Positions 2,562-41,250 of a stretch of 55,861 nucleotides of DNA are shown here, in pieces. Position numbers and translations under genes: made by a program. Every line of letters begins with the position of its first letter. Positions within the stretch are counted from its first letter, which is position 1. The notes under the pieces were generated by a model that searched no databases, had not been told where the DNA came from, and saw only the letters and a program-made list of their open reading frames with translations. The DNA is from Candidatus Uhrbacteria bacterium (lineage in GTDB: Bacteria; Patescibacteriota; Patescibacteriia; UBA9934; GWF2-40-263): assembly GCA_016235605.1 (NCBI GenBank), contig JACRJW010000023.1, positions 1-55,861 of the forward strand, written 5' to 3'.

Positions 2562-3701
2562 ATGAAACGGCATCGCACGTGGGTTGAGGTCAGTGAGCGA
2601 GCGCTCACGAACAATATCGAGACCTTGCGCTCACTGCTTGAGGATGAGGCACGTTTTTGTGCCGTGGTGAAGGCGAATGCCTATGGACATGGCCTCACAG
2701 AGGTCGCAAGCATTGCCGCGCGTGCAGGGGTTGATGCCTTTGCGGTTGATTCCATTGATGACGCGCTCCTCTTGCGGGAGATCTATCCTGGTGCGCTCAT
2801 CCTCACGTTAGGATTCACGCTGTCAGATCGGTTTCGGGAAGCGCTGAGCGCGAATATCCATCTGACCATCTCGGACCAGGAGGAAATTGAACAGGCCCAA
2901 TCCGTCGGCCGCGAACTCGCAAGGACGTTTCCCCTCCACCTGAAGGTTGAAACAGGGACCATGCGCCAAGGAGCGTCCCTCCCGGATCTTGCCGACATGG
3001 CCCTTCAACTATCACGATGTGATCGTGTGTCACTGGAAGGCGTCTCAACCCATTTTGCCAACATTGAGGATTCTGAAAATCCAGAATTTGCCGCCCACCA
3101 ATTTTCCTTATACGAGCAGGCTCTCGCCATTTTTGCAGAGCACCAGATCAACCCACCATGGCGGCACACTGCCTGTTCGGCCGCGATTATTTTGTATCCT
3201 CAGACCCACCAGACCCTTGTGAGGGCTGGGATCTCGATGTACGGCATTTGGTCCTCAGAACTCGTTGAAAATACCGTGAGACGTCTTAATCTTGGATGTG
3301 ACCTTCAACCAGTACTCACCTGGAAATCCCGCATCGGGCAGATAAAAACAGTCCCAATGGGGACGCCCATCGGATACGGTCTCACAGAGGTCATGAAGCG
3401 CAGCGGCAGGCTTGCGGTGGTTCCTGTGGGATACTGGGATGGCTACGACCGCCAGCTGTCCTCAAAAGGCGAGGTGCTTGTGAAGGGGATCAGATGTAAA
3501 GTGATGGGACGCGTGTGCATGAACATGATGATGGTGGATGTGTCACAAGTTCCGCAATTGCAGAAGGAAGATGAAGTTATTTTACTGGGAACGGATGGTC
3601 GCCATCGGGTCACGGCTGAAAACCATGCGCAGCTCACCCAGACGATTCCCTATGAAGTGCTCACACGGATCCATCCCTCAATTCCACGCGTGATCGTATG
3701 A
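2562..3701 (+). CDS. alr: Alanine racemase
   Basis: 379 aa with the PLP-lysine motif VVKANAYGHG and a conserved C-terminal beta domain. Confidence 0.9.
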   Translation: MKRHRTWVEVSERALTNNIETLRSLLEDEARFCAVVKANAYGHGLTEVASIAARAGVDAFAVDSIDDALLLREIYPGALILTLGFTLSDRFREALSANIHLTISDQEEIEQAQSVGRELARTFPLHLKVETGTMRQGASLPDLADMALQLSRCDRVSLEGVSTHFANIEDSENPEFAAHQFSLYEQALAIFAEHQINPPWRHTACSAAIILYPQTHQTLVRAGISMYGIWSSELVENTVRRLNLGCDLQPVLTWKSRIGQIKTVPMGTPIGYGLTEVMKRSGRLAVVPVGYWDGYDRQLSSKGEVLVKGIRCKVMGRVCMNMMMVDVSQVPQLQKEDEVILLGTDGRHRVTAENHAQLTQTIPYEVLTRIHPSIPRVIV

Positions 3702-4537
3702 GCAGACGAGATTTTTTTCGACACGCAGAGCGCAGGCAGTATCGCACAAGGGATCACGAAAATCCCTACTTTCGCCGCGTAAAGAAAATCCCGTGGAAGG
3801 CGCTGAGTCTTTTCGTGGGCACAACGATCGTCTTTTTGGGCTTCTTAACGTTTCTTTTAGCCCATCCCGCGCTTGCCATTCACGAAGTACAAATTGATGG
3901 ACTCACGCATATCGACCGAGAGGAGTTTCAAACAGAGGTTTCTGCCTATCTTCATGAACGGGTCCTCCTATTTTTCCACCGGAAGAATCAATTTCTCTTT
4001 TCGGATGAGGACCTCCGCAAAAAACTTGAGAAGAAATTTACGTTTGCCTCCCTCACGGTCTCACAAGAGGGGAAGAAGCTTTCTATCCATGTGGAGGAGA
4101 GGAATTCAAATTTGATTTGGATGACGGATCAGGAATATATCGTTGATGTGCATGGAGTGGTTGTCCGGCGGCTGAATAGGGAAGACGCAGCGGAGGCGAA
4201 CCTTGCCTCATTCCTGCCTTCATTTTACGACATAAATAAGGTCCCTGTTACGGTCGGTTCCACGGTACTCACAGAACAAGAGATCGAACGAGTCTTTGCG
4301 TTCCATAAAATCTTAAGTGAACAAGGGATCGGCTTCACGCAGACGCGTTTAAATCGTCTTGTAGGTGGTTGGATGAGTGTGGTGACACAGGAAGGCTACG
4401 AGATCTATTTTGACGTCACAGGAGATATTGAAGCACAGGGAGAGGCCTTGAAAATGGTCCTGGCAGAGCAAATAGAGGATCCAGGGGACCTTGAATACAT
4501 TGATGTGCGTTTTGGGGATCACGTATATTTTAAATAG
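3698..4537 (+). CDS. ftsQ: FtsQ/DivIB-like cell division protein
   Basis: 279 aa with an N-terminal TM helix followed by a POTRA-like segment (VQIDGLTHIDREEF). ATGA start/stop overlap with alr. Confidence 0.65.
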   Translation: MSRRDFFRHAERRQYRTRDHENPYFRRVKKIPWKALSLFVGTTIVFLGFLTFLLAHPALAIHEVQIDGLTHIDREEFQTEVSAYLHERVLLFFHRKNQFLFSDEDLRKKLEKKFTFASLTVSQEGKKLSIHVEERNSNLIWMTDQEYIVDVHGVVVRRLNREDAAEANLASFLPSFYDINKVPVTVGSTVLTEQEIERVFAFHKILSEQGIGFTQTRLNRLVGGWMSVVTQEGYEIYFDVTGDIEAQGEALKMVLAEQIEDPGDLEYIDVRFGDHVYFK

Positions 4538-4682
4538 AGGGCTGCATAATCGGCGAATTACGAATGGCTACGAATATACGAATCGACCGAGTGTTGTCGT
4601 ATAAGGCATATTGTGCGACACGCTTGTTCTCCTTCTCTTCAACAGACCGCTCGACGAAATTATTCTGTTTGTACGACTAGTT

Positions 4683-4886
4683 CTAAATAAAGTCTGTGAG
4701 ATAAATAAGTAAGAGCATGATCACGCCAATCAGAAAAAACGTAAGACCGATAAGTGAGAGGGCAAGGATAAGCTCATCATTCTCCCCTGCCCCGCGGACC
4801 ATGTTGATGCTCACTCCTAAAAAGACGGTGAGCGGAACAAGCGCGAACGTCCAGCCGAGAAATGTGAGGACGAATTCAAGCGTCAT
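4683..4886 (-). CDS. Small two-TM membrane protein, unknown function
   Basis: The internal Met (MTLEFVLTFLGW...) begins 5 nt after the stop of the upstream M23 gene. Two hydrophobic helices. The longer ORF-track start would overlap the M23 gene. Confidence 0.45.
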   Translation of the reverse strand: MTLEFVLTFLGWTFALVPLTVFLGVSINMVRGAGENDELILALSLIGLTFFLIGVIMLLLIYLTDFI

Positions 4887-4890
4887 AAGC

Positions 4891-6096
4891 TCAATATGAA
4901 ATAAGATAACTGAGTGGGTCTGTCGGAATGCCGTCTTTGCGAACTTCAAAGTGCAAATGCGGTCCAGTGGAAAGGCCTGTGCTTCCAACAGCCCCGATCG
5001 TGTCTCCGCGCGCGACAAACTGATCTGCCACCACATCGATCCTGGAAAGGTGCGCATAGAGCGTTGAAAGACCGTTTGTGTGGATCACCATCACATAATT
5101 TCCATACAGACGTCCCGTTTTGGTAAATGCGACGTAGCCAGTGGCAGCGACGCCCACAGGCGTCCCAGTCGCCGCTGGAAGATCAAGTCCTGAATGTTCA
5201 AACAGATTTCGGAACGGATAGGTGGGGTCATGGAAGTAGGTGGAGATACCACGAAGCGTCGGACTAAACGGCCACGAAAGCACGGATGAATCCCCTCCTT
5301 GGTCCGCTTCGCTGAGCTTCCCTTCGATCTCCTGCTGTAACAAAAGAATTTCTTGGTTGATGAATGTTTGTTCCTGTTTGACGTCCTGAAGGAGAGATTG
5401 AAATTCTGATTCTGATTGCTGGGTTTGGGTGATGAGGATCTCCTTTGATCCTGTTTCCTCAGAGAGTCGATCAAGGTCCTTATCCAGGCTGTCCTCCAAT
5501 GAAACGAGGTCTCCCTTTTTCGTTTCCTCATTCGCCACTTTTTCCTCGAGGGCCGCTTTCATGGAACGGGCCTCATCAACCGTTTTTTTTAAGTCCTCAG
5601 AGACATTCGAGAGACGTTCAAGATTGTCGAAGAGTTCGGAGAAGGAATCATTCCCAAAAAAAAGTTCAAGCGGGACGGCCGTGTCCTCTGTTTGGATTTG
5701 ACGCAGGACTTGTGCCATGAGCTCACGTTGATAGTTGAGCTTCTCCTGGATCGTTTTGATTTCCCCGTCAAGGGACGCAAGCTCGATGTTCACAAGATCG
5801 ATGGAAGCCTCGGCGGCTTCAATATCAAGCTTCGTTTTTGCAATCCGGTTTTCAAGCAGGTCAATTTCTCCGTACAACGAGGCCTCTTGTGCCTGAAGGT
5901 TCTCAATTTTGTCTTTATAGGAATCGATCTGGCTGTTTAGGGCATCGATCGCCTCGCGCTTCTCATCAATCTTTGAAGAGAGGTTGTCGATGTCTGAATC
6001 ACCCTGTGCCTTTGCAGTTTCAACATAAAATAACGGCAGACTCATAAGAGCCAACAGGAGTATCACACGGCAGATTCCAGACAGGTTGTGTCTCAT
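4891..6096 (-). CDS. Secreted M23 metallopeptidase with long N-terminal coiled coil (EnvC-like)
   Basis: 401 aa with a signal peptide, a coiled coil of about 230 aa, and a C-terminal M23 domain (HSGLDL..., GPHLHFEV). Confidence 0.85.
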   Translation of the reverse strand: MRHNLSGICRVILLLALMSLPLFYVETAKAQGDSDIDNLSSKIDEKREAIDALNSQIDSYKDKIENLQAQEASLYGEIDLLENRIAKTKLDIEAAEASIDLVNIELASLDGEIKTIQEKLNYQRELMAQVLRQIQTEDTAVPLELFFGNDSFSELFDNLERLSNVSEDLKKTVDEARSMKAALEEKVANEETKKGDLVSLEDSLDKDLDRLSEETGSKEILITQTQQSESEFQSLLQDVKQEQTFINQEILLLQQEIEGKLSEADQGGDSSVLSWPFSPTLRGISTYFHDPTYPFRNLFEHSGLDLPAATGTPVGVAATGYVAFTKTGRLYGNYVMVIHTNGLSTLYAHLSRIDVVADQFVARGDTIGAVGSTGLSTGPHLHFEVRKDGIPTDPLSYLISY

Positions 6097-16842: not shown

Positions 16843-17792
16843 AAATCGTTTTTTTCGGAACCCCAAGTTTCTCTGTCCCATTCCTCCAAGCCCTCATCGA
16901 CGACCCTGACACACAGGTCGTCGGTGTTGTGTCTCAAGGCGATAAACCAGTCGGTCGCGGCGGTGAAATCCAAGCCTCACCGGTGAAGACCTTGGCTCTC
17001 TCACGCGCCATCCCAGTCTTTACACCAGCATCGCTGAAGACCAATTCTCACATCCACGATCAGCTGCGCGAGCTTAGTGCCGACGTTTTTGTTGTGGTCG
17101 CGTATGGCAAACTTATTCCGCAGTCTATTCTGGACATTCCTCCCCATGGAGTCGTAAACGTTCATCCGTCCCTCCTACCACGTCATCGAGGACCTTCTCC
17201 GATGCAGTTTGCGATCGCACAGGGCGACGTCTTCACCGGCGTGACGATCATGCTCTTGGACGCTGGCATGGACACGGGGCCGATTCTTTCGTTTGAACGG
17301 ATTGATCTGAGCGCGGAGGAAACCTACACAACCCTTTCTCAAAAAGTTCAGGTGACAGGTTCCCGACTTCTCATTCAGACGCTCAGGCGCCACCTGCACG
17401 GTGAGATTGTCCCTCTGCCTCAGGATGATTCCAAATCTCCGGCGACGGTCACTCGCCTACTTGATCGAGAGGACGGTCACATAAACTGGACAGAGTCGAT
17501 GGAAACACTCGAACGCAAGTCCCGCGCCTACATCGAGTGGCCAGGATTGTGGTCTGTGTGGACACGCTCAACCGATGAACAGCTGCGCCTCAAGCTCCTT
17601 TCCATCCGCCCATCTGATTTTACGGCTGACGATCATCCTGGAACCGTGACGATCAAGGACAGCCGTCTGTTCATCGACTGCGCCGACGGCACGCTTGAAA
17701 TTCTCGAGATCCAGCCGGAGGGGAAACCAAAAATGCAGGCAAAGGCTTTCGTGGCAGGCTATTTAGATATCAACAGCGCTGTGCTGAAGTAG
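16839..17792 (+). CDS. fmt: Methionyl-tRNA formyltransferase
   Basis: 317 aa with HPSLLPRHRGPSP and a C-terminal tRNA-binding domain. GTGA overlap with def. Confidence 0.9.
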   Translation: MKIVFFGTPSFSVPFLQALIDDPDTQVVGVVSQGDKPVGRGGEIQASPVKTLALSRAIPVFTPASLKTNSHIHDQLRELSADVFVVVAYGKLIPQSILDIPPHGVVNVHPSLLPRHRGPSPMQFAIAQGDVFTGVTIMLLDAGMDTGPILSFERIDLSAEETYTTLSQKVQVTGSRLLIQTLRRHLHGEIVPLPQDDSKSPATVTRLLDREDGHINWTESMETLERKSRAYIEWPGLWSVWTRSTDEQLRLKLLSIRPSDFTADDHPGTVTIKDSRLFIDCADGTLEILEIQPEGKPKMQAKAFVAGYLDINSAVLK

Positions 17793-18496
17793 CGGTAGTG
17801 GGGTCAGGTCTGGCTATCTCTGAATTCAAATATCCACAACGAATCCTTGCAAGGATAATGGCATCGTTACGTTCCTGCTTCGTTTTTACATCGGCAAAAA
17901 TCTCCTCAAGACTCAAGCGACCAACGATACGTTCATCACGAGGATGCTCCTTGAGTTTTTCTGATCCATTTGTCTTTTCCCAAATCCAATTCACAAACTG
18001 TGGACTCCCCAAAAGAAATCCATTGGTCACCTCATCATAAGGATTTTTGCCACCGATCCCCTCCTCTACAAATGTTCTGTAATCTTGTTGGGCGTCTCGT
18101 TTTTGTTTTGAAAAATTTCCGAGCAACCAATCAACGTACAACCACTCCGGAACACGTCCGGCTCCCGACGTTGCCCGATAACTGCTCCATTTCCAATCTT
18201 TTGGATGTACAACCAAATCTGCACGCACAGCGTTAAGCACGATGTACCTAGCCACTTCAAGAAAATACGTTTCCCTCTCAATGACAAACGCTCTATAACG
18301 CCCTTGAAAGAGATGCCCCACGCGATCGTGTACGACATTAAACCATTGTGAAAAATTCCCATTCAAATCGCGCATCGCGACGGAGAGATTGGCATCGATG
18401 ATCGTGGTCGTTTAAAAAAATATCTTGTTTAGCATTTCCACGGGCGATCACATGATAGAGCGCTCCTGGATATTCAACACGAAGTGGACGGGACAT
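17770..18496 (-). pseudogene. Decayed Y1 (IS200-like / REP-associated RayT-like) transposase
   Basis: An N-terminal fragment from ATG 18496 (MSRPLRVEYPGALYHVIARGNAKQDIF) lies in a different frame from ORF 17770-18375 (GHLFQGRYRAF...WKWSSYRA). The HUH-containing segment expected between them is absent. Confidence 0.6.
17799..17818. repeat. Left arm of a perfect 20-bp inverted repeat flanking the transposase remnant
   Basis: tggggtcaggtctggctatc, preceded by GTAG (17795-17798). It is the exact reverse complement of 18529-18548. Confidence 0.85.
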
Positions 18497-18528
18497 AAAT
18501 TGATATAGTGATCATTTTTGAAAAAGCC

Positions 18529-18548
18529 GATAGCCAGACCTGACCCCA
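18529..18548. repeat. Right arm of the perfect 20-bp inverted repeat flanking the transposase remnant
   Basis: gatagccagacctgacccca, the exact reverse complement of 17799-17818. Confidence 0.85.
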
Positions 18549-20087: not shown

Positions 20088-20183
20088 CCGATCGACGAGC
20101 CTCGCCACGGTGCAGACCCCGTCGGTGCTCGCTGACGCTGCGCTAGCCGGCCGGGGTCAGACACTGTGTCACTCATCGATCGG
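20088..20183 (+). repeat. Rod-like palindromic intergenic element, family 2, copy A
   Basis: A 96-nt imperfect hairpin (outer stem ccgatcga/tcgatcgg). It shares blocks of 35 nt and 17 nt with the reverse complement of 41152-41250. Confidence 0.8.
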
Positions 20184-20190
20184 CACTCGA

Positions 20191-22017
20191 TCACAATTTA
20201 TGCTTCACAACAATGATCTCTCGGGCAGACCGATAATCCTTGATAGCTCGTGGCGTCCAGCCGATGCGTTTCCACGGAATCCGATACATGAACGACGGCA
20301 ACCAAGTAGAAATCCCGCGGCGTCCACCATCTTGTTGAACCGTGAACAGGAACGCGTCGACGAAGACACCCGTATGTCCTTGCTCAAGCATCGTAAGCCA
20401 GAGATCCCAATCTTGAAAGCGTTTGAGGGAAGGATCAAATCCAGGGAAGTGCTCACGCCGGATGAGTGACATGGTGTTGATGTAGTTATTTTTTCGCAGA
20501 GCATTCGCATCGAAAGCGTGTGAGGCAAACCATCGATGCCCCCAGAAAAAACTGGAGTAGGCATACGAAGCTTCTGGATGTGCACTCAGTGCCTGCTCCA
20601 ATGTCTCCAGCATCGTCGGTTCAGCTACCACGTCGGCATCACAAAAAAAGAGCAAGGATCCTGTCGAGCGTCCAAAGCCTGCCATGCGTGCGGCAGGTGC
20701 GCCTTGGTTTTCTTGAAAGTCGAGATAGACGATCCGATCGAGATACGGTTCAAGTCGTGAGCGAGTATCGTCCGTGGAGCCATTGTTAACCACGATGATC
20801 TCGTCTGGGCGCCGTGTCTGAGCAAGGAGAGAATCTAGGCACGCCGTAATCGTCTTGCCATGCTGGTAGGTTGGGATGATGACCGAGATGCCAAGGGGCA
20901 TAGGTTGTAGGGATGAGGTTGTAGGGAGTAGGTAGGCCTTCAACTTTCTGAATTGCTCCTCACAAGTAAATTTCGCGGCGTGGTCGTAGGCTGCGAGTCC
21001 AAGCTTGATTCGAAGTTCTGCGTTGCGCGAGAGCTCAAGAATCTCTTGCGCAAGGTGCTGTTCATCTTGATCTCTCAGCACGATTCCCGTCTCACGATCG
21101 ACCACAGCCTCCGTTACACCTGTGACGTTGGTGGTGATGCTGGGAACGGCGTACTGAGCGGCCTCCAAAAAGACAAGTCCAAATCCTTCCTTGTCGACAG
21201 GATCATTTGAAACGGGCATCACAAACACATCCGCCACGGCGTAGAGCTGGCTTTTTGTTGTGCGGTCGACTCGACCGTGAAAACGCACAGAGTCTTGGAG
21301 TCCAAGTTCACTCACCATTTCTTTCAGTGTTCCTTCCTCTGGTCCCTCGCCTGCGATGTCGTAAACGAAATTCTCCAGCAGGCCTTGGCGGCGCAGGAGT
21401 GACAAGGCGGTGAGCACATGGGCATGGCCCTTACGTTTTACGAGTCGGGAAACGGTCAACAGGTGGAATCGTCCGTCAGATGCAGGTTTGGTCGGCAGAG
21501 GCACCGTGGGCAAACAGGGATACACCACAAGAAGCTCTGTCACTCCAAAAACCTTTGCGACTTCTTGCGCAAGCGCCTGCGAATTACAAACAACGACACG
21601 TGCATATTTCAGAACCTGCGTCGCCATCGCTCTTTTTCGTGCTGACTGCTGTGCAAGCCGAATATCCATCCCATGCACAAACACGACATACGGCGTCTTC
21701 GTCTTTTTCATCGCAACCATGGCGGCTGTTCCAAACGGAAGAACATGACTGGTCAAAATCAATCGGTAACGATCTTGATAGCTTTTGAGGATCCTGACCA
21801 TCTTCCACCAGCGCGGAAAAATCCACTTGAACAAGAGTGGGCTGCGATACACGGGATAGCCAGCGCTGGGATCGGACGACTGCCAGGCAGGATTGGGCAC
21901 TGTGAGAACCTCGATGTCGTCCTTAAAAAAGGTCGCGAGTTCACTCAGGTAGCGCGCCACGCCGCCTTCCATGGGCGGAAAATCTGGAGTGATGAGGAGC
22001 ATTTTTTTTTGGTTCAT
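20191..22017 (-). CDS. Two-domain glycosyltransferase (N-terminal GT4, C-terminal GT2)
   Basis: Start set at MNQKKMLLITPDFPP (ATGA overlap with the flippase stop). GT4 E-x7-E block (EGFGLVFLEAAQYAVP), then GT2 blocks (VIIPTYQHGKT, VVNNGSTDDT, FCDADV). Confidence 0.75.
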   Translation of the reverse strand: MNQKKMLLITPDFPPMEGGVARYLSELATFFKDDIEVLTVPNPAWQSSDPSAGYPVYRSPLLFKWIFPRWWKMVRILKSYQDRYRLILTSHVLPFGTAAMVAMKKTKTPYVVFVHGMDIRLAQQSARKRAMATQVLKYARVVVCNSQALAQEVAKVFGVTELLVVYPCLPTVPLPTKPASDGRFHLLTVSRLVKRKGHAHVLTALSLLRRQGLLENFVYDIAGEGPEEGTLKEMVSELGLQDSVRFHGRVDRTTKSQLYAVADVFVMPVSNDPVDKEGFGLVFLEAAQYAVPSITTNVTGVTEAVVDRETGIVLRDQDEQHLAQEILELSRNAELRIKLGLAAYDHAAKFTCEEQFRKLKAYLLPTTSSLQPMPLGISVIIPTYQHGKTITACLDSLLAQTRRPDEIIVVNNGSTDDTRSRLEPYLDRIVYLDFQENQGAPAARMAGFGRSTGSLLFFCDADVVAEPTMLETLEQALSAHPEASYAYSSFFWGHRWFASHAFDANALRKNNYINTMSLIRREHFPGFDPSLKRFQDWDLWLTMLEQGHTGVFVDAFLFTVQQDGGRRGISTWLPSFMYRIPWKRIGWTPRAIKDYRSAREIIVVKHKL

Positions 22018-29463: not shown

Positions 29464-29474
29464 GAAATGCACTT

Positions 29475-29600
29475 AGACCGTTGCAAAACTCGCGATCTTG
29501 CGACTTGCGGGCCCCGCCACCTCCTCAACGTAATTTCCACTACGTCTCGGAGGCTGGCTTCCCCGCGCATCGCAATCTCATCGAGTTTTGTAACGGTCTC
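29475..29600 (-). repeat. Rod-like structured element, family 1, copy D (126 nt)
   Basis: Read on the minus strand it aligns with 35310-35440 read on the plus strand. Both share the same five-helix rod, with conserved loops and compensatory stem changes. It abuts the alaS stop codon. Confidence 0.85.
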
Positions 29601-31538
29601 TTAGTCTAAAACCGCCTTTATCCGTCGAACTCCGCTTGCCACGGCTTCTTCTTTTTGGATCTTAAACCTCCCCAACTCTCCTGTTTTTTCCACATGCGGT
29701 CCCCCACAGACTTCGCGGCTAAACGACTCGACTGAGACGTCACCGCCGATGAAATAGACTTTGATCTTTCCTCCGAGTTGCGCATACTTGTCTTCAAATA
29801 ATCCAATCGCCCCGCGCCGCTTCGCTTCGTCCAAATCCAGGATCTCAAAATGCACAGGCAAATCTTTTTTGATCTGTTCGTTCACGATGGCCTCCACGCG
29901 TTGTTTTTCGTCATCAGTCATTTTTTGCGGATGGGAAAAATCAAACCGCAGACGTTCAGGGGTGATATTGGATCCTTTCTGCTGTACGTGAGATCCCAGG
30001 ACACTCCGCAGAGCCTGATGCAACAAGTGCGTGGCGGTGTGGAGTCGCACAACTTTATCAGAATGATCCGCAAGGCCTCCCGCAAATTTCTGTCCTGACC
30101 CCGAGCGTGAAAGGTCTTGATGCTTGCTAAACTCCGATTGAAACACTGCGCGATCGATTTTCTGACCATGCTCCCGAGCCAACTCCTCGGTCAACTCCCA
30201 AGGGAAACCGTAAGACTGGTAGAGATTAAACGCGTCGACTCCAGAGACGGCACTGGATCTTGTAAAGAGTTTCTCAAATTCTTTCAGCCCTTTCCCCAAC
30301 GACGCCTTGAATTTCGTTTCTTCTTTTGTGAGTTCCTCGATGATCGTCTTTTCCTTTTCTGCAAGCTCGGGATAGGCGGCTGTATACTCACGCACATACG
30401 CCTGTGCCACAGCTCCACAAAATGCTCCTTGAACGCCAATCGTGTTTGCAAATCGCACAGCGCGTCGAATAAGACGGCGCACATAGTAACCCTGATCCTT
30501 GTTTGAGGGAAACACGCCGTCGGCGACCAAAAAAGTCGCGGCACGCAAATGGTCCAAGATAACGCGGAAGGCATAGGACCTATGAGCCTCGCCCGTGGGC
30601 CGGCTCGCCCGTTGGGCTATGCCCAAAGAGGCATGGCCGAGGGACGAATAGGTCGTATTGGACTTCTGCTCGATCACTTCTCGCGCGAGGTGAAAGACAT
30701 CAATCAAGAACATGTCCGGATCGTCCAGGACCGCGGAGGCGAGACGTTCAAGCCCTCCGCCGAAATCGACGTTTGCCTTTGGAAGCAACTCGAACCCTGT
30801 TGCGGTTTTCTTGTACTGCATGAACACGTTGTTTCCAATTTCAGCAAACCGTCCACAATCACAATTTACGTGACAGACGTCTTTTGCAAAAGCCGATTTC
30901 TCATGAAGCCCACGCTCAATTCCAAAATCCCAAAACATTTCCGAGTCTGGTCCACCCGGCTCCCCAACGGGCATCTTTTCTGGGGAGCCTGAACGTGACC
31001 ACCAATTCTTCTTTTCGTCATAGTAAAAGATGCGACCGCCTTGCATGCCATCGCGCTTTGAAAAATCCACGTCCTTTGCGGAAACTCCGACAGAGGCAAA
31101 TGCGTCCTTCCAGTACCCGACCGTTTCTTCATCGCGTGGAACCTGCGCGTTGCCACGAAACACGGTCACATACAGGCGATAGGGATCGAGCCTAAGTTCA
31201 TGCGTGAGAAATTCAAACATCCACGCGACCTGTTCCTTCTTGAAATAGTCTCCCAGTGACCAGTTTCCAAGCATCTCAAAAAATGTCGTGTGCCGATTAT
31301 CGCCAACTTCGTCGATGTCTTGTGATCGAAAGCATTTTTGTGCGTCGACAATCCTCGTGCCTTTGGGATGCGTTTCTCCCAAAAGATATGGCACCATCGG
31401 TTGCATGCCAGACCCTGTAAAGAGCGTCGTCGGATCATTTTCAGGCAAGAGCGAGGCGGAAGGGACGAGCTTGTGGCCGCGGAAAACAAAAAAATCAAGG
31501 TATTTCTGTCGAATCTCGTGAGTGGTCATAATGGTCAC
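29601..31538 (-). CDS. alaS: Alanyl-tRNA synthetase, short form lacking the C-Ala domain
   Basis: 645 aa with the class II catalytic core plus editing-domain motifs HTATHLLHQAL and CGGPHV. It ends soon after the editing domain. Confidence 0.88.
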   Translation of the reverse strand: MTIMTTHEIRQKYLDFFVFRGHKLVPSASLLPENDPTTLFTGSGMQPMVPYLLGETHPKGTRIVDAQKCFRSQDIDEVGDNRHTTFFEMLGNWSLGDYFKKEQVAWMFEFLTHELRLDPYRLYVTVFRGNAQVPRDEETVGYWKDAFASVGVSAKDVDFSKRDGMQGGRIFYYDEKKNWWSRSGSPEKMPVGEPGGPDSEMFWDFGIERGLHEKSAFAKDVCHVNCDCGRFAEIGNNVFMQYKKTATGFELLPKANVDFGGGLERLASAVLDDPDMFLIDVFHLAREVIEQKSNTTYSSLGHASLGIAQRASRPTGEAHRSYAFRVILDHLRAATFLVADGVFPSNKDQGYYVRRLIRRAVRFANTIGVQGAFCGAVAQAYVREYTAAYPELAEKEKTIIEELTKEETKFKASLGKGLKEFEKLFTRSSAVSGVDAFNLYQSYGFPWELTEELAREHGQKIDRAVFQSEFSKHQDLSRSGSGQKFAGGLADHSDKVVRLHTATHLLHQALRSVLGSHVQQKGSNITPERLRFDFSHPQKMTDDEKQRVEAIVNEQIKKDLPVHFEILDLDEAKRRGAIGLFEDKYAQLGGKIKVYFIGGDVSVESFSREVCGGPHVEKTGELGRFKIQKEEAVASGVRRIKAVLD

Positions 31539-33197: not shown

Positions 33198-34370
33198 TTA
33201 GGACGGCCGCATAGGCATTCGTCGCTTGAAGAAGCCTGATCCTAAAGTAGCCAAAGCGATCAAAAGCAGAAGCGACAAAAAAACCACGGCCACCAAGACA
33301 ACGGGATTCTGTAGGCTGAAGAATGGGACACGGACGATCGTCTGTTCGCTCACGGTTTCCCCTGCCGCGTCCTTGAGCGTGAGTGTGGCTGTGTAGGTAC
33401 CGGAAGCGCCGTACGTATGCACCACAACAGACTTGGACGAGGTGACGCCGTCGCCAAAATCCCAGAAAAGGATGCGATCGTCATCAACGGAACCGACCTC
33501 CATAAACGTAAAGGTGTTCCACGCGTCTCGTGTATAGCGAAAAATCGCATTCGGGGAAACGGTCATCTCTGCCGTCTCAAGGCCCTCTTCTGGAGCCGAT
33601 GTTGTCGCTTGCGATCCTTCAACCTCATCAGGCTCATCTGTTGAGGACTCTTGGATCGTTTGCGCGACCTGGGAGATGAGTTCTTTGAAGGTCACACTCG
33701 CGCCCTCCTCTTGTTTCTGCTCTTGTCCCTGCTCCGCTTCCTCTTGTTCGCTCACGCGTTCAGGATCTGTCGGAAACGCATCGCTTTGGTCTTCCACACC
33801 GTCGCCATCGGTATCTGTCATGAGCGAGTTGGTCCCAATCTCTGTTTCAATTTCATCGGAAAGTCCATCGTTATCGTCATCTGTGTCACACAGGTCTCCA
33901 AGCCCATCACCGTCTGAATCCGCTTGCGACGCATCGGCGATCGTTGGACAATCATCGTCTCCATTGGCCACTCCATCGCGATCATCATCGAGGATAGGCT
34001 GGTACAGGGAGGTGATGGCGACATTATTGCTTTCGTCTTCGTCGGTAGGATCTGTCCCTTCTACCTGGGCTTGGATATTGAACGAACTCGACGGGACGAT
34101 AAAATCGATGTAGACCTCTTCCGCGCTTCCATTGGCAAGGACGGAAATGACTTGCGAGGCGCCGACGAGATTCGATCCCTGATAAAATGTGACGTATCCA
34201 GAAACGTCTTCATCACCGATGTTATGCACCGATGCATACAACCGGACTTGATCACCTGCGACGATCGTCTCGCGCGATAAACGGATGTCGTTTTGTTCGA
34301 TTTTCAAATCAGCCTTTGCGAAAGCGATCGAAGGCAACAGGAGCGCAATAAAAATGACCAATACTTTCAT
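33198..34370 (-). CDS. Cell-surface protein with an Asp-rich calcium-binding repeat region and a PKD-like domain
   Basis: Start set at MKVLVIFIALLLPSIAFA (ATGA overlap with corA). Thrombospondin-type-3-like DxDxDG repeats, a PKD-like block (WDFGDGVTS...YTATLTLKD) and a C-terminal TM anchor. Confidence 0.7.
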   Translation of the reverse strand: MKVLVIFIALLLPSIAFAKADLKIEQNDIRLSRETIVAGDQVRLYASVHNIGDEDVSGYVTFYQGSNLVGASQVISVLANGSAEEVYIDFIVPSSSFNIQAQVEGTDPTDEDESNNVAITSLYQPILDDDRDGVANGDDDCPTIADASQADSDGDGLGDLCDTDDDNDGLSDEIETEIGTNSLMTDTDGDGVEDQSDAFPTDPERVSEQEEAEQGQEQKQEEGASVTFKELISQVAQTIQESSTDEPDEVEGSQATTSAPEEGLETAEMTVSPNAIFRYTRDAWNTFTFMEVGSVDDDRILFWDFGDGVTSSKSVVVHTYGASGTYTATLTLKDAAGETVSEQTIVRVPFFSLQNPVVLVAVVFLSLLLLIALATLGSGFFKRRMPMRPS

Positions 34371-35284
34371 AAGCGTTTTCGACGCACTATCCCCATCAGA
34401 ACAAACACCATCCCAAGCATCCCAAGGACATACAGCAGGGTGATGACCTTTGGACTCTCTACAAAGGGAAGCCATGAAGCATTCATCCCGTAAAAACCGG
34501 CAATGAGCGTGGGAACCATCAGCGCCGCAGAGAGAAAGGTGAGGATGGTGATGATCTGATTTGTCTTGTGGGAAATGAGCGCCTCATTCACGTCAAAAAG
34601 CCCATCGATGAGCAGTTTCAAATTATCCGTCGAGAGCCAGATCGTATCGAGGATGTCATGGAGATCATCAAAATACACGAGGATGTCTTCCGGAATAAAC
34701 GACCGTGTCGTATGCCGCAAACTCAAAAGCATACTGCGCTGGGGATCGACGAGATGGCGCAAGAACAACACATTACGCCGAGCATGTCCTAGGTCGACGG
34801 TGAGCCGTTTGTCATGGTTGTGTTCGATGGATTCTTCAAGACGATTCACCTCTTGCGTGAGCTTCCCAATAATATGAAGGGAGCCATGGAACAGGTGCGA
34901 AATGATTCGATACATGGCAAATGAGGTCCCCTTTCCCAGGACGACGGAACGGAATTTTGCGTTCTGGGACATCCGCTCAAAATACGCATCGAGTTCCTGA
35001 AAGGGTTTATAGGTCACGGTGACCAGATCTTCTGTTGAGAGAAAAACATAAACGGGTTCACCGTAGATATTTCCAGAGGTCTCATGGACACTCGGCACGT
35101 GGAACAGGAAAAAAATATAGTGCTTGTATGCGTCCATTTTTGAAATCGGTGATTCGTTTCTGATGTCTTCGTAATCGAGATGATGAAACTTAAATTTTTC
35201 CTGAAGCGCCTTCAGATCTTTTTCGGCAACGCCACTGACGTGATGCCAGTTGACGCCCTTGGCTTCGATGGTTTTTGTCCCCAT
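34367..35284 (-). CDS. corA: CorA-family magnesium/cobalt transporter
   Basis: 305 aa with a YGMN motif (GFYGMN) before the last TM helix. Confidence 0.9.
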   Translation of the reverse strand: MGTKTIEAKGVNWHHVSGVAEKDLKALQEKFKFHHLDYEDIRNESPISKMDAYKHYIFFLFHVPSVHETSGNIYGEPVYVFLSTEDLVTVTYKPFQELDAYFERMSQNAKFRSVVLGKGTSFAMYRIISHLFHGSLHIIGKLTQEVNRLEESIEHNHDKRLTVDLGHARRNVLFLRHLVDPQRSMLLSLRHTTRSFIPEDILVYFDDLHDILDTIWLSTDNLKLLIDGLFDVNEALISHKTNQIITILTFLSAALMVPTLIAGFYGMNASWLPFVESPKVITLLYVLGMLGMVFVLMGIVRRKRL

Positions 35285-35309
35285 ACCTAATGGGTATGCT
35301 CCCCCTTAT

Positions 35310-35440
35310 GAGACCTCTCTCAAAAGTCGATGAGATTGCGGTGCACGGGCTGTCGAGCCCCACGAAACGTAGGTTCTCTACGTAGAGTGGGGTCGACGGG
35401 CGCCCGTAAGCCGCAAGATCACGACTTTTGCAGAGGTCTC
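35310..35440 (+). repeat. Rod-like structured element, family 1, copy C (131 nt)
   Basis: A five-helix hairpin homologous to 29475-29600. It is flanked by TTAT on both sides, and its right arm supplies the last codons and the stop of the GT2 gene. Confidence 0.85.
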
Positions 35441-36135
35441 TTATGACCAAACGTATAGTGGAAATAGTTGTGCCTCACCGGACCCAAAATCGCCAAATGC
35501 ACTTCAGCCAGCAGATACTTGACGGCGATCGTCCATCGACCGTCTCGATCGAGTCGACGGATGGAAACCGGAATCTGTGTGGATCTCAAAAAACCAAATC
35601 GACCTACCGATCGAAACCGTCGTGCGTAATCGTGGTCTTCACAAAACACCACGCTCTCATCAAAGCCCCCAAGCTTGTCGTGCAAATCTTTCCGCACGAT
35701 CATACAAAACCCAGGTGCGTGCGGAAACAACGATCCACAGACATGGACATAGGCATTGTACGCCCTGTGCAAAAAATGATCGATGCGAGCGTGCGAGAGC
35801 GGGACGACATCGCACGTCGCAAGGTCAAATTTTCTCTCGAACATCTCTTTGACCGATTTCTCCAAAAACTCTGGGTCGAGAAGTTCGACGTCTGCATCTA
35901 AAAAAAGCATCAGGTCGGTCGTGGCATGGGCGGCGCCACGGTTGCGGGCAATGGCAACCGGTCCTCCCTCAACCACTTTTGCGCCGAACGACCTCGCGAT
36001 TTCTCGCGTGCGATCGGTTGACTGTGCATCAGCAACAATAATTTCAAACGGTTGAACCGTTTGGTGTTTGATGGACGATAGGAGTCGAGGAAGATACGCT
36101 TCCTCGTCCTTTGTTGGAATGACAATGGTCAACAT
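35419..36135 (-). CDS. Family 2 glycosyltransferase
   Basis: 238 aa with IVIPTKDEE, IIVADAQSTDRT and FLDADV (DxD). Confidence 0.85.
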   Translation of the reverse strand: MLTIVIPTKDEEAYLPRLLSSIKHQTVQPFEIIVADAQSTDRTREIARSFGAKVVEGGPVAIARNRGAAHATTDLMLFLDADVELLDPEFLEKSVKEMFERKFDLATCDVVPLSHARIDHFLHRAYNAYVHVCGSLFPHAPGFCMIVRKDLHDKLGGFDESVVFCEDHDYARRFRSVGRFGFLRSTQIPVSIRRLDRDGRWTIAVKYLLAEVHLAILGPVRHNYFHYTFGHKRPLQKS

Positions 36136-36194: not shown

Positions 36195-37325
36195 ATGATG
36201 AGCTGTCCTCAAAAAGAGATCTGCGGATCGTGTTCCTGGTCACACATTCCCTATGACAAACAGTTGAAGGCAAAGCTGTCTGACATCAACGGATCGTTTG
36301 GTTTGAAAAAGCTCAACCTAAAATGCGATACGATCATCTCCTCACCTAAGACTTCGCACTATCGCAACCGAATGGATTTTGCGATCGATTGGGAAGGACG
36401 TGTCGGGCTGAAGGAAAAAGGCAAGTGGTGGAAAGTGATCGACGGCCACGCGTGTTTTCTCGCGGACGAGCGAATCGACGAACTATTTGTCGCTGTCAGG
36501 TCCTGGGCCCAAACGTGTGGTCTCAGTTTCTTCGATCGCAAAGCACACACAGGACTGTTGCGCTATGCGGTGATTCGGTGTACCTCACTGGTCGAAACCA
36601 TGATTACGATAGTCACGAGTGTTCCAAAGTCGACAGAGGCTGCAGATAAGGTCCGATCGAATCTTCTGTGCATCCTCGATACGGCACGACCAACGACCCT
36701 TATGTGGGCGCAGAATTCGACGATCACGGGCGTGAGCTACGGTGACAGACTTGAGACGCTCGCCGGTCCAGGCTTTATCGAGGAAGGAATCAACGGTTTC
36801 CGCTACCGCGTGAGTCCCCAGGCCTTCTTCCAAACAAATTCTTACGCCGCGCCCACCTTGCAAAAAACCGTCCAAGAATTCTGTGGCGACCTCACGAACA
36901 AAACTCTTCTCGATCTTTACTGCGGGACGGGCTTCTTCTCCGTCGCTCTTGCCAATCAGGCAGCTCGCACGATCGGAGTCGAGATGGTTCCAGAAGCCAT
37001 TGTTGACGCCAGAATAAACGCATCTTTGAACGCTTCACGATCCACGTTCTACGATGCACGAACCGAGGAATTCGACTGGGCGGCCTTTGGCGCCGACGTC
37101 GTCATCCTTGACCCGCCTAGAGTTGGGATGCATGATGGTACCCTGCAAGACATTCTTGCTACCAAACCACCCGTGATTGTCTACGTTTCCTGCAATCCCA
37201 AAAACTTTGCTCGCGAGATGGTTCTCCTGCAAAATACCTATCGTGTTGAACAGATGCGTGCCATCGACATGTTCCCTCACACGCCGCATGTGGAGCTTGT
37301 TTCAAAGCTGATAGTTCGTAGGTAG
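36195..37325 (+). CDS. RumA/TrmA-family RNA (uracil-5)-methyltransferase
   Basis: 376 aa with SAM motif DLYCGTGFFS, VILDPPRVGM and the catalytic YVSCNP. Confidence 0.8.
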   Translation: MMSCPQKEICGSCSWSHIPYDKQLKAKLSDINGSFGLKKLNLKCDTIISSPKTSHYRNRMDFAIDWEGRVGLKEKGKWWKVIDGHACFLADERIDELFVAVRSWAQTCGLSFFDRKAHTGLLRYAVIRCTSLVETMITIVTSVPKSTEAADKVRSNLLCILDTARPTTLMWAQNSTITGVSYGDRLETLAGPGFIEEGINGFRYRVSPQAFFQTNSYAAPTLQKTVQEFCGDLTNKTLLDLYCGTGFFSVALANQAARTIGVEMVPEAIVDARINASLNASRSTFYDARTEEFDWAAFGADVVILDPPRVGMHDGTLQDILATKPPVIVYVSCNPKNFAREMVLLQNTYRVEQMRAIDMFPHTPHVELVSKLIVRR

Positions 37326-37382
37326 TAGGTTATAGGGGAAAAACTACTACCTAAAACCTACCACCTACAACCTTCCACCCCT
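37320..37382 (+). other. Hairpin over the methyltransferase stop, followed by a 44-nt G-free leader with a CCTACAACC motif before era
   Basis: 9-bp stem aggtagtag/ctactacct. Positions 37339-37382 contain no G (hand-checked) and include acctaccacctacaacc. Confidence 0.7.
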
Positions 37383-39444: not shown

Positions 39445-39489
39445 AGAGAAAGGTCGTAGGTTGTAGGTGTTAGGTGATAGAATCTTAGC

Positions 39490-41151: not shown

Positions 41152-41250
41152 ACACGTGAGTGGCACGGCGTCTGGTTCCGGCCGGCTAGCGCAGTCGAGC
41201 TCAGCTCGACGAGCACCGACGGAGCCTGCGCCGTGACGAGGCTCACGTGT
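41152..41250 (-). repeat. Rod-like palindromic intergenic element, family 2, copy B
   Basis: Its reverse complement aligns with 20088-20183. It carries an extra internal hairpin, gtcgagc-tga-gctcgac. The outer stem acacgtgag/ctcacgtgt overlaps the HD gene stop. Confidence 0.8.

Follow-up and report, generated by a model that had tools for sequence, protein, structure and literature searches.

Two hairpins on one contig of a Candidatus Uhrbacteria MAG raise the question of whether they represent a structured RNA preserved by selection or copies of a mobile repeat. The window, which is the whole contig of 55,861 nt, carries one of them (copy D) beside alaS and the other (copy 2) beside a family-2 glycosyltransferase (GT2) gene. 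The initial annotation favoured selected structure over a repeat. The evidence presented here indicates that the hairpins are very probably copies of a MITE, an imperfect palindrome over its whole length and a mobile repeat of Candidatus Uhrbacteria.

Two rod-shaped hairpins and their gene neighbourhood

The two copies, their conserved blocks and the adjoining features are as follows.

29474 to 29600, minus strand: copy D of the rod element, with a subfamily A apex, by its fold and a covariance-model match (127 bits, E 8e-32); minus-strand reading GAGACCGTTACAAAACTCG...CGAGTTTTGCAACGGTCT(A)
29571 to 29584, minus strand: conserved 5′ block TCGATGAGATTGCG of copy D (A bulge, U.G/G-C/A-U helix and first half of the GA/GA loop)
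29482 to 29502, minus strand: conserved 3′ block CGCAAGATCGCGAGTTTTGCA of copy D
29601 to 29604, minus strand: upstream target-site copy CTAA of copy D, including the alaS stop codon TAA (29601 to 29603)
29601 to 31538, minus strand: alaS
29463 to 29435, minus strand: promoter of the infA-rpsM operon, TTGACA-N17-TACAAT (11/12 consensus matches), given as context and outside the element
35310 to 35440, plus strand: copy 2 of the rod element, with a subfamily B apex (covariance-model match of 115 bits); sequence GAGACCTCTCTCAAAAGTCG...CGACTTTTGCAGAGGTCTC
35327 to 35340, plus strand: conserved 5′ block TCGATGAGATTGCG of copy 2
35412 to 35432, plus strand: conserved 3′ block CGCAAGATCACGACTTTTGCA of copy 2
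35306 to 35309, plus strand: left target-site duplication TTAT of copy 2
35441 to 35444, plus strand: right target-site duplication TTAT of copy 2
35419 to 36135, minus strand: GT2 ORF
35419 to 35440, minus strand: element-derived end of the GT2 ORF, with the tail ...FGH-KRPLQKS (stop) instead of the ...FGHAPRE (stop) of a relative
34367 to 35284, minus strand: corA

Alignment of 29465 to 29610 (minus strand) with 35300 to 35450 (plus strand) gave a mean column identity of 79%, and the elements alone are 74% identical globally. Each is an imperfect palindrome of ~130 nt that folds into one unbranched rod. The fold of copy D reaches -80.2 kcal/mol (z = -13.3), a value equalled by 0 of 200 shuffles, and copy 2 has the same layout at -85.5 kcal/mol (z = -9.7). 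The complementary strands fold less well (-68.8 kcal/mol for copy D and -80.6 kcal/mol for copy 2). Both alignment and folding therefore confirm that these are two divergent copies sharing a common rod. A search of the window with the conserved blocks and the covariance model found no rod beyond copy D and copy 2.

From the base upwards, both copies have an outer stem of 17-19 bp and share the block 5′-UCGAUGAGAUUGCG / CGCAAGAUC(G/A)CGA-3′. A paired ACGGG/CCCGU in one copy stands against GCGGG/CCCGC in the other, and the apical stems (GCCA-G-CCUCC vs CUGUCGA-G-CCCCAC) are unrelated in sequence. The terminal hairpin is ACGUAG. A single bulged G is present in both apical stems despite their different sequence, as had been proposed, and is seen in both folds; the tally of 10 or more positions changed on both sides between the copies is likewise correct. 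The five helices of the initial annotation are all present, whereas its first junction, drawn as AUGA opposite 1 nt, is rendered differently in the minimum-energy fold, namely as a 1-nt A bulge, a 3-bp U.G/G-C/A-U helix and a 2x2 GA/GA loop.

The order of features at copy D is alaS, element, promoter, followed by infA, rpsM, rpsK and rpsD. The element abuts the alaS TAA, as first described, and lies 11 nt upstream of TTGACA-N17-TACAAT. At copy 2 the order is GT2, element, corA, and here the element is antisense to the flanking genes. With all flanking genes on the minus strand, the opposite orientation that had been reported for the two copies is evident. Copy 2 is located inside the 3′ end of the GT2 gene, following the ...FGH codon, and supplies its last 7 codons; the duplication that reads TTAT on the plus strand is ATAA/ATAA on the gene strand. 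At copy D the downstream target-site copy is degraded (junction GGTCT^AAG). The site can alternatively be taken as a direct repeat of 5 nt, CTAAG, that overlaps each terminus (29472 to 29476 and 29600 to 29604).

Copy number, termini and empty sites across the family

One genome per GTDB species was scanned for the two conserved blocks, which returned 76 stretches. About 50 of these are genuine rods, which come almost without exception from Candidatus Uhrbacteria MAGs, several to a genome; the remainder are chance matches in unrelated phyla and show no fold. A covariance model was built from 50 aligned copies and searched in the same loci and in 21 metagenome contigs. Additional diverged copies were found in both, giving 74 distinct copies from the genome scan, covariance-model and metagenome searches together, again almost entirely in Uhrbacteria MAGs. 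Viral contigs scanned with interior-based and terminus-based patterns gave no match.

The copies are 126-132 bp long, and the ORFs that run across them are only the tails of host genes, with no transposase gene. Up to 20 copies were present in the loci sampled from one MAG (nzgw366), with pairwise identities of 57-98%, so that old and recent copies coexist. Some copies within a genome are 95-98% identical. There are at least four apical subfamilies, and the window copies fall into different ones that coexist in several other genomes, in keeping with the earlier view that the two are not recent duplicates of each other.

Three rods of the genome scan were on contigs binned as Lentisphaerae, Gammaproteobacteria and Bacteriovoracales (L002, L071/L106, L042), and these are either mis-binned contigs or cases of a transferred element. 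The L042 copy has GTAAC termini and an 8-bp duplication with a 7/8 match. Longer relatives of up to ~190 nt (L096 2799 to 2926, L090 3499 to 3627, L041 5981 to 6103 and L045 1175 to 1339) retain the GAUGAGAU...AGAUCGC motif and the apical CCGAGACGUAG...CUACGUUGAGG, with outer stems that are longer and wholly different. In L014, a 345-nt non-coding stretch without an Rfam match (2740 to 3085) adjoins a rod; at its end stands a solo right terminus of rod-like sequence, CGACTTTTGCAGAGGTCCC, with two TGTGAAT motifs ahead of it. This stretch may represent one end of a related element of larger size.

The outer stem of 17-19 bp constitutes a terminal inverted repeat, the commonest form being GAGACCTCTGCAAAA / TTTTGCAGAGGTCTC. 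At the canonical boundary (GAGACC...GGTCTC) an exact 4-bp direct repeat flanks 16 of 59 copies, compared with 0.49 expected and a maximum of 4 in 2000 permutations of flank pairs. The same was found for 5 of 14 new metagenome copies, and an exact duplication is present in only about a third of copies. The duplicated sequences vary and are AT-rich (TATT, TTAT, GTTA, CCTA and others), often T-A-T-T-like.

The outer ~12 nt of the stem are diverse (GAGACCTCTGC, GGGTCTGTTCC, GGGGTTATCTC, GTAAAACTTAT, CTGTGAATGAGG, TATACCTATGC and others), nearly always perfectly complementary and constant in length. Termini of the TGAAT type are associated with a 10-bp duplication, in 10 of 10 cases in L031 and, confirmed by an empty site, in L030; three other terminus types have 5-bp duplications. 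Moreover, one interior subfamily occurs with canonical and TGAAT-type termini within a single MAG. Since one interior is found on termini with 4-, 5- and 10-bp duplications, more than one transposase is needed, which suggests that several transposases act on elements with a common interior.

Among copies found via the interior-block pattern, the outermost ~12 nt vary more than the interior, a biased contrast that is partly built in because the search patterns fixed the interior blocks. Transposase-bound terminal repeats usually show the reverse, their ends being more conserved than their interior. Covariance-model matches outside the search pattern, including the ~190-nt relatives, still keep the interior motif.

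These observations bear on the idea of a mobile hairpin known by its shape, to which we give only a very slim chance. Here an enzyme would bind the interior block and cut the base of the stem at a fixed distance, any complementary outer stem would serve, and the strand asymmetry described below would reflect a single-stranded intermediate. Many unrelated outer stems, perfectly complementary and constant at about 18-19 bp, are what this idea predicts, and it also draws on the strand asymmetry and on the persistence of GAUGAGAU...AGAUCRC in distant ~190-nt relatives with other outer stems. However, the higher conservation of the interior is partly a product of the search, ~60% of copies have one terminal sequence (GAGACCTCTGC) in common, as an ordinary terminal repeat would, and the length of the duplication (4, 5 or 10 bp) tracks the terminus type, which points to several ordinary transposases and not to a single enzyme measuring like a ruler.

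Relatives with 75-78% AlaS identity keep the gene order corA-PKD-murJ-alaS-infA-rpmJ-rpsM. The alaS-infA spacer is 238 nt in the window vs 92-126 nt in four of them, and alignment of the spacers yields a single clean gap that coincides exactly with copy D, the promoter beyond the gap being conserved. The GT2-corA spacer is 134 nt in the window vs 8 nt in the relative L085, which is without copy 2. A covariance-model search of the syntenic loci of relatives found no rod copy. Two additional pairs of filled and empty sites, between L030 and L103, bring the total to 4. In L028 (4048 to 4251) a canonical rod is nested in the apical stem of a TGAAT-type rod. Clean empty sites, duplications and nesting are the defining signs of a non-autonomous transposon.

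The initial annotation had read the compensatory changes as a sign of selected structure rather than of a repeat, and this is not supported: the copies are dispersed and have target-site duplications, and both window sites are empty in relatives. Near-identical copies across a genome together with target-site duplications, the combination it had itself set against a novel structured element, are essentially what was found, with some copies 95-98% identical.

In many copies the adjacent ORF terminates 1-3 nt into the element. Because GAGACC is read inward from either end, the junction becomes TAG or TGA wherever the target ends in TA or T, and with a stop codon created in this way an insertion at a stop codon is harmless. 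Survivors in these genomes, which are nearly without intergenic DNA, are insertions at stop codons and gene tails. A TGAAT-type rod with a 10-bp duplication (L030 5963 to 6094) lies in frame within a 933-aa P-type cation ATPase, to which it adds ~47 residues; the orthologous site in L103 has no rod.

Covariation, strand asymmetry and the structured-RNA alternative

Over the 50 aligned copies, 96.9% of cells are paired and 21 of 34 pairs have changed on both sides, which was equalled in 0 of 500 shuffles; slid controls reach only 31-46% pairing. The arms are thus kept complementary across the family, and the shared fold and compensatory changes first noticed in the window copies hold family-wide. 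As the copies are related by descent, these fold and pair counts, and those given below, are not independent observations. Furthermore, the element is a palindrome over its full length, and covariation therefore cannot separate pairing in RNA from pairing or copying between DNA arms.

With RNA parameters, 59 of 59 copies gave a more stable fold for the strand defined by GATGAGATTGCG than for its complement (-84.4 vs -73.5 kcal/mol, with 3.2 vs 1.0 G.U pairs), and with DNA parameters 74 of 74 copies did so. The source of this asymmetry is largely the conserved U.G pair (found in 48/50 copies), a second frequent U.G and the tandem G.A loops. Outer-stem G.U and A.C mismatches, on the other hand, are about equal in number (20 vs 15).

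Such features could be expected of a non-coding or cis-regulatory RNA in which the sense-strand rod is maintained by selection on its fold, such as a protein-binding rod carrying tandem G.A loops, and in which the repeats are gene copies. The covariation is strong, the asymmetric A bulge, the U.G pair, the GA/GA loops and the bulged G are conserved, and the sense strand is the more stable in every copy. As the initial annotation had anticipated, the rod also belongs to no known Rfam family: the whole window gave no Rfam match at gathering thresholds, and the two copies searched at E values of up to 10 gave only noise (sX5 at 13.9 bits and STAXI at 10.8 bits, both E > 3). Nevertheless, we consider a selected RNA very improbable indeed, the least probable of the readings weighed here. 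Both window copies are insertions missing from syntenic relatives, and target duplications are present. No promoter was found in or next to the window copies, and no terminator-like site (a G+C-rich hairpin followed by a U tract) was found at either, their tails being AAGUGCAUUU and UUAUGACC. Copies also occur inside coding regions, one of them in frame in the P-type ATPase.

The orientation of the copies is a further point against it. Between co-directional genes the sense strand is antisense to its neighbours in 37 copies and sense in 17 (p = 0.009), in a test that relied on crude gene calls and on copies that are incompletely independent. Divergent genes flank another 11 copies and convergent genes another 4. 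Replication-strand bias, judged by flanking GC skew, was not significant (32 vs 42). Finally, the divergence between two orthologous copies, which occupy one site in the closely related metagenome contigs L095 and L090, is similar to that of the non-coding DNA next to them. The elements differ by ~8%, mostly uncompensated, compared with 7% in the non-coding flank and a coding flank that is ~99% identical; this is a single pair of copies. Because of the orientation, the absent signals, the divergence in place and the copies within genes, compensation is therefore a property of proliferating lineages and not of individual insertions.

Several known motifs were considered by eye and rejected. A hammerhead core would read CUGAUGA, whereas the sequence is CGAUGAG and the three-way junction is missing. 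In a canonical kink-turn or box C/D motif the GA of the non-bulged strand would adjoin a canonical stem, which it does not here. An attC site would have core sites (RYYYAAC...GTTRRRY); there are none, and the flanking genes are housekeeping genes.

Candidate enzymes and comparison with known elements

If the rods are a MITE, then an enzyme would act on them in trans. No autonomous parent with rod termini was found in ~0.9 Mb of flanking DNA around the copies. Matches to the terminal repeat outside known copies, with up to 2-3 mismatches allowed, were only solo or chance occurrences. Inverted repeats spaced 0.5-3.5 kb apart in all loci sampled belonged to Y1-transposase units only, and an all-against-all blastn for repeated segments of >250 nt revealed no insertion sequence. 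The genes between inverted rod pairs (L065, L025, L016 and L030) include no transposase; they encode an ECF sigma factor, a metallo-beta-lactamase-fold protein, a uridine-kinase-like protein and a P-type ATPase.

RAYT-like tyrosine (Y1) genes, which match Pfam Y1_Tnp and NCBIfam NF047646, were the sole transposase genes observed. The match to NF047646 is 94 bits in L014, above the 80-bit cutoff, and 77 bits in L065, just below it. The distance between the RAYT-like unit and a rod is 63 nt in L065 and 1.2 kb in L014. The window itself contains what looks like a third, decayed unit of this kind.

17799 to 18548: apparent degraded RAYT-like unit of 750 nt, with inverted repeats of 20-35 nt (TGGGGTCAGGTCTGGCTATC...)
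17770 to 18375, minus strand: truncated ORF of 201 aa, 54% identical to the full-length 285-298-aa RAYT-like proteins of L014 and L065 and without ~80 N-terminal residues

These genes make it necessary to weigh a REPIN-like mechanism, in which a doublet of inverted blocks is moved strand-specifically as a single-stranded DNA hairpin by a RAYT (Y1/HUH) encoded by one gene per genome. REPINs likewise consist of two inverted conserved blocks with a compensated, variable hairpin interior and have a single-stranded intermediate (PMC3116915). The rods resemble them in these blocks, in the compensated interior, in the presence of RAYT-like genes in the same genomes and, at L065 and L014, close by, and in a fold that is better on one strand in all copies, with DNA parameters too. 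They differ in that the RAYT-like genes are flanked by another repeat: all three units are bounded by TGGGGTCAGGTCT... and not by rod sequence. Local alignment of the unit ends with all rod arms scored 22-26, where shuffles reached 22 at the 99.9th percentile and 26 at maximum; with scores this marginal and matches that are not collinear, a relationship between the two repeats was judged not significant. The inverted rod pairs examined enclose no Y1 gene. In addition, the rods have 4-bp target duplications of variable sequence, and their blocks are situated 18 nt inside the ends as opposed to at them. Target duplication is not known for Y1 or IS200/IS605-type transposition. An IS200/IS605-type element was also rejected by eye, as the flanking tetranucleotide should be constant and here it varies. 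Given the different flanking repeat, the marginal similarity and the target duplications, a REPIN/RAYT origin appears very improbable, and we infer a transposase that makes staggered cuts.

Other repeats were observed near the Y1 units or in the window. In L065, inverted rods bracket a 1-kb segment with an ECF-type sigma factor and a small ORF (3135 to 4435), an arrangement like that of a composite transposon and directly beside the Y1 transposase unit at 4498 to 5413. A second, unrelated family of hairpin repeats is represented in the window by an inverted pair at 20097 to 20175 and 41157 to 41244, which is 84-89% complementary and folds at -54 and -66 kcal/mol (z of -4 and -5). This repeat contains GGGGTCAGAC, like the inverted repeat of the Y1 unit, and so could be the cognate repeat of that enzyme. 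Short AGGTTGTAGG-type repeats, both direct and inverted, occur at 20893 to 20931, 37304 to 37379 and 39449 to 39480, with a local inverted pair at 37306 to 37366, just after a trmA-like gene.

Among known mobile repeats, the rods are most readily compared with MITEs that are palindromic from end to end, such as Neisseria Correia/nemis, enterobacterial ERIC, Bacillus bcr1 and Coxiella QMITE2. They are likewise non-coding elements in the range of 100-200 bp with terminal inverted repeats, short target duplications, dispersed copies that are intergenic or at gene 3′ ends, and stable long stem-loops. In particular, bcr1 forms long RNA or DNA stem-loops with 5-bp direct repeats and base-pair compensation (PMC3184786), and QMITEs of Coxiella overlap the 3′ ends of genes by 1-50 bp (PMC5896051). 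The likeness is drawn from traits, and similarity in sequence is not expected. Unlike those MITEs, the rods reside in a CPR/Patescibacteria lineage, combine several terminus types and duplication lengths with one interior, and have a conserved, asymmetric interior motif (A bulge, U.G, tandem G.A).

Two further systems share some of these traits. Rickettsia palindromic elements (RPE) are palindromic repeats of ~100-150 bp that can be in frame within protein-coding genes. The in-frame rod in the P-type ATPase of L030 is alike, whereas most rods are intergenic or at gene ends. The attC sites of integrons are imperfect palindromes of 57-141 nt that conserve their structure, extrahelical bases and strand asymmetry but not their sequence; however, no cassette array or integrase is present in the region of the window, and the rods are dispersed singly with target duplications. 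Among the papers searched, nothing was found on such repeats in Uhrbacteria or CPR. The rod is a previously uncatalogued family of MITEs, a kind of element that is itself well known, and not a new class of structured RNA.

Taken together, the data describe an element that inserts with a 4-bp AT-rich target duplication and that comprises several subfamilies, near-identical and old copies occurring side by side in a genome. It would be moved in trans by a DDE-type transposase making staggered cuts. Complementarity of the arms may be kept in proliferating lineages because folding back or cruciform extrusion brings the ends of a short element together; alternatively, the folding may make the element tolerable within transcripts. 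It would not be kept for a service of each copy to its host, and the single orthologous pair fits this. In the window, copy D rides as a passenger in the interval from the alaS stop codon to the infA promoter, and copy 2 has rewritten the last GT2 residues and widened the GT2-corA spacer from 8 nt (as in L085) to 134 nt. Some observations run against a MITE of the ordinary kind. The strand asymmetry in every copy is not predicted by a purely double-stranded mechanism, nor do the 4-, 5- and 10-bp duplications, the variable yet complementary ends and the incomplete duplications fit easily. The failure to find an autonomous parent in the ~0.9 Mb searched also counts against it.

It is conceivable, though unlikely, that the interior is a portable module which is read single-stranded and which spreads by way of a strand-specific hairpin recognised by its shape. 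The module consists of GAUGAGAU(U)GCG paired with CGCAAGAUCRC, and includes the A bulge, the conserved U.G and the tandem G.A loops. If true, this would account for the unrelated complementary stems, for the interior shared between termini with 4-, 5- and 10-bp duplications and for the strand asymmetry, and it would amount to a mode of mobility, or a functional hairpin that hitch-hikes, not described for MITEs.

For the biology of the hosts, the rods mean that the tiny, tightly packed genomes of CPR/Patescibacteria still carry proliferating MITEs. These elements rewrite the tails of proteins, as in the GT2 of the window, and have placed a 47-residue in-frame insert in a P-type ATPase of another MAG. 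The covariance model can flag rods and so prevent them from being mistaken for novel RNA genes in Uhrbacteria MAGs, and their filled and empty sites are usable as strain markers.
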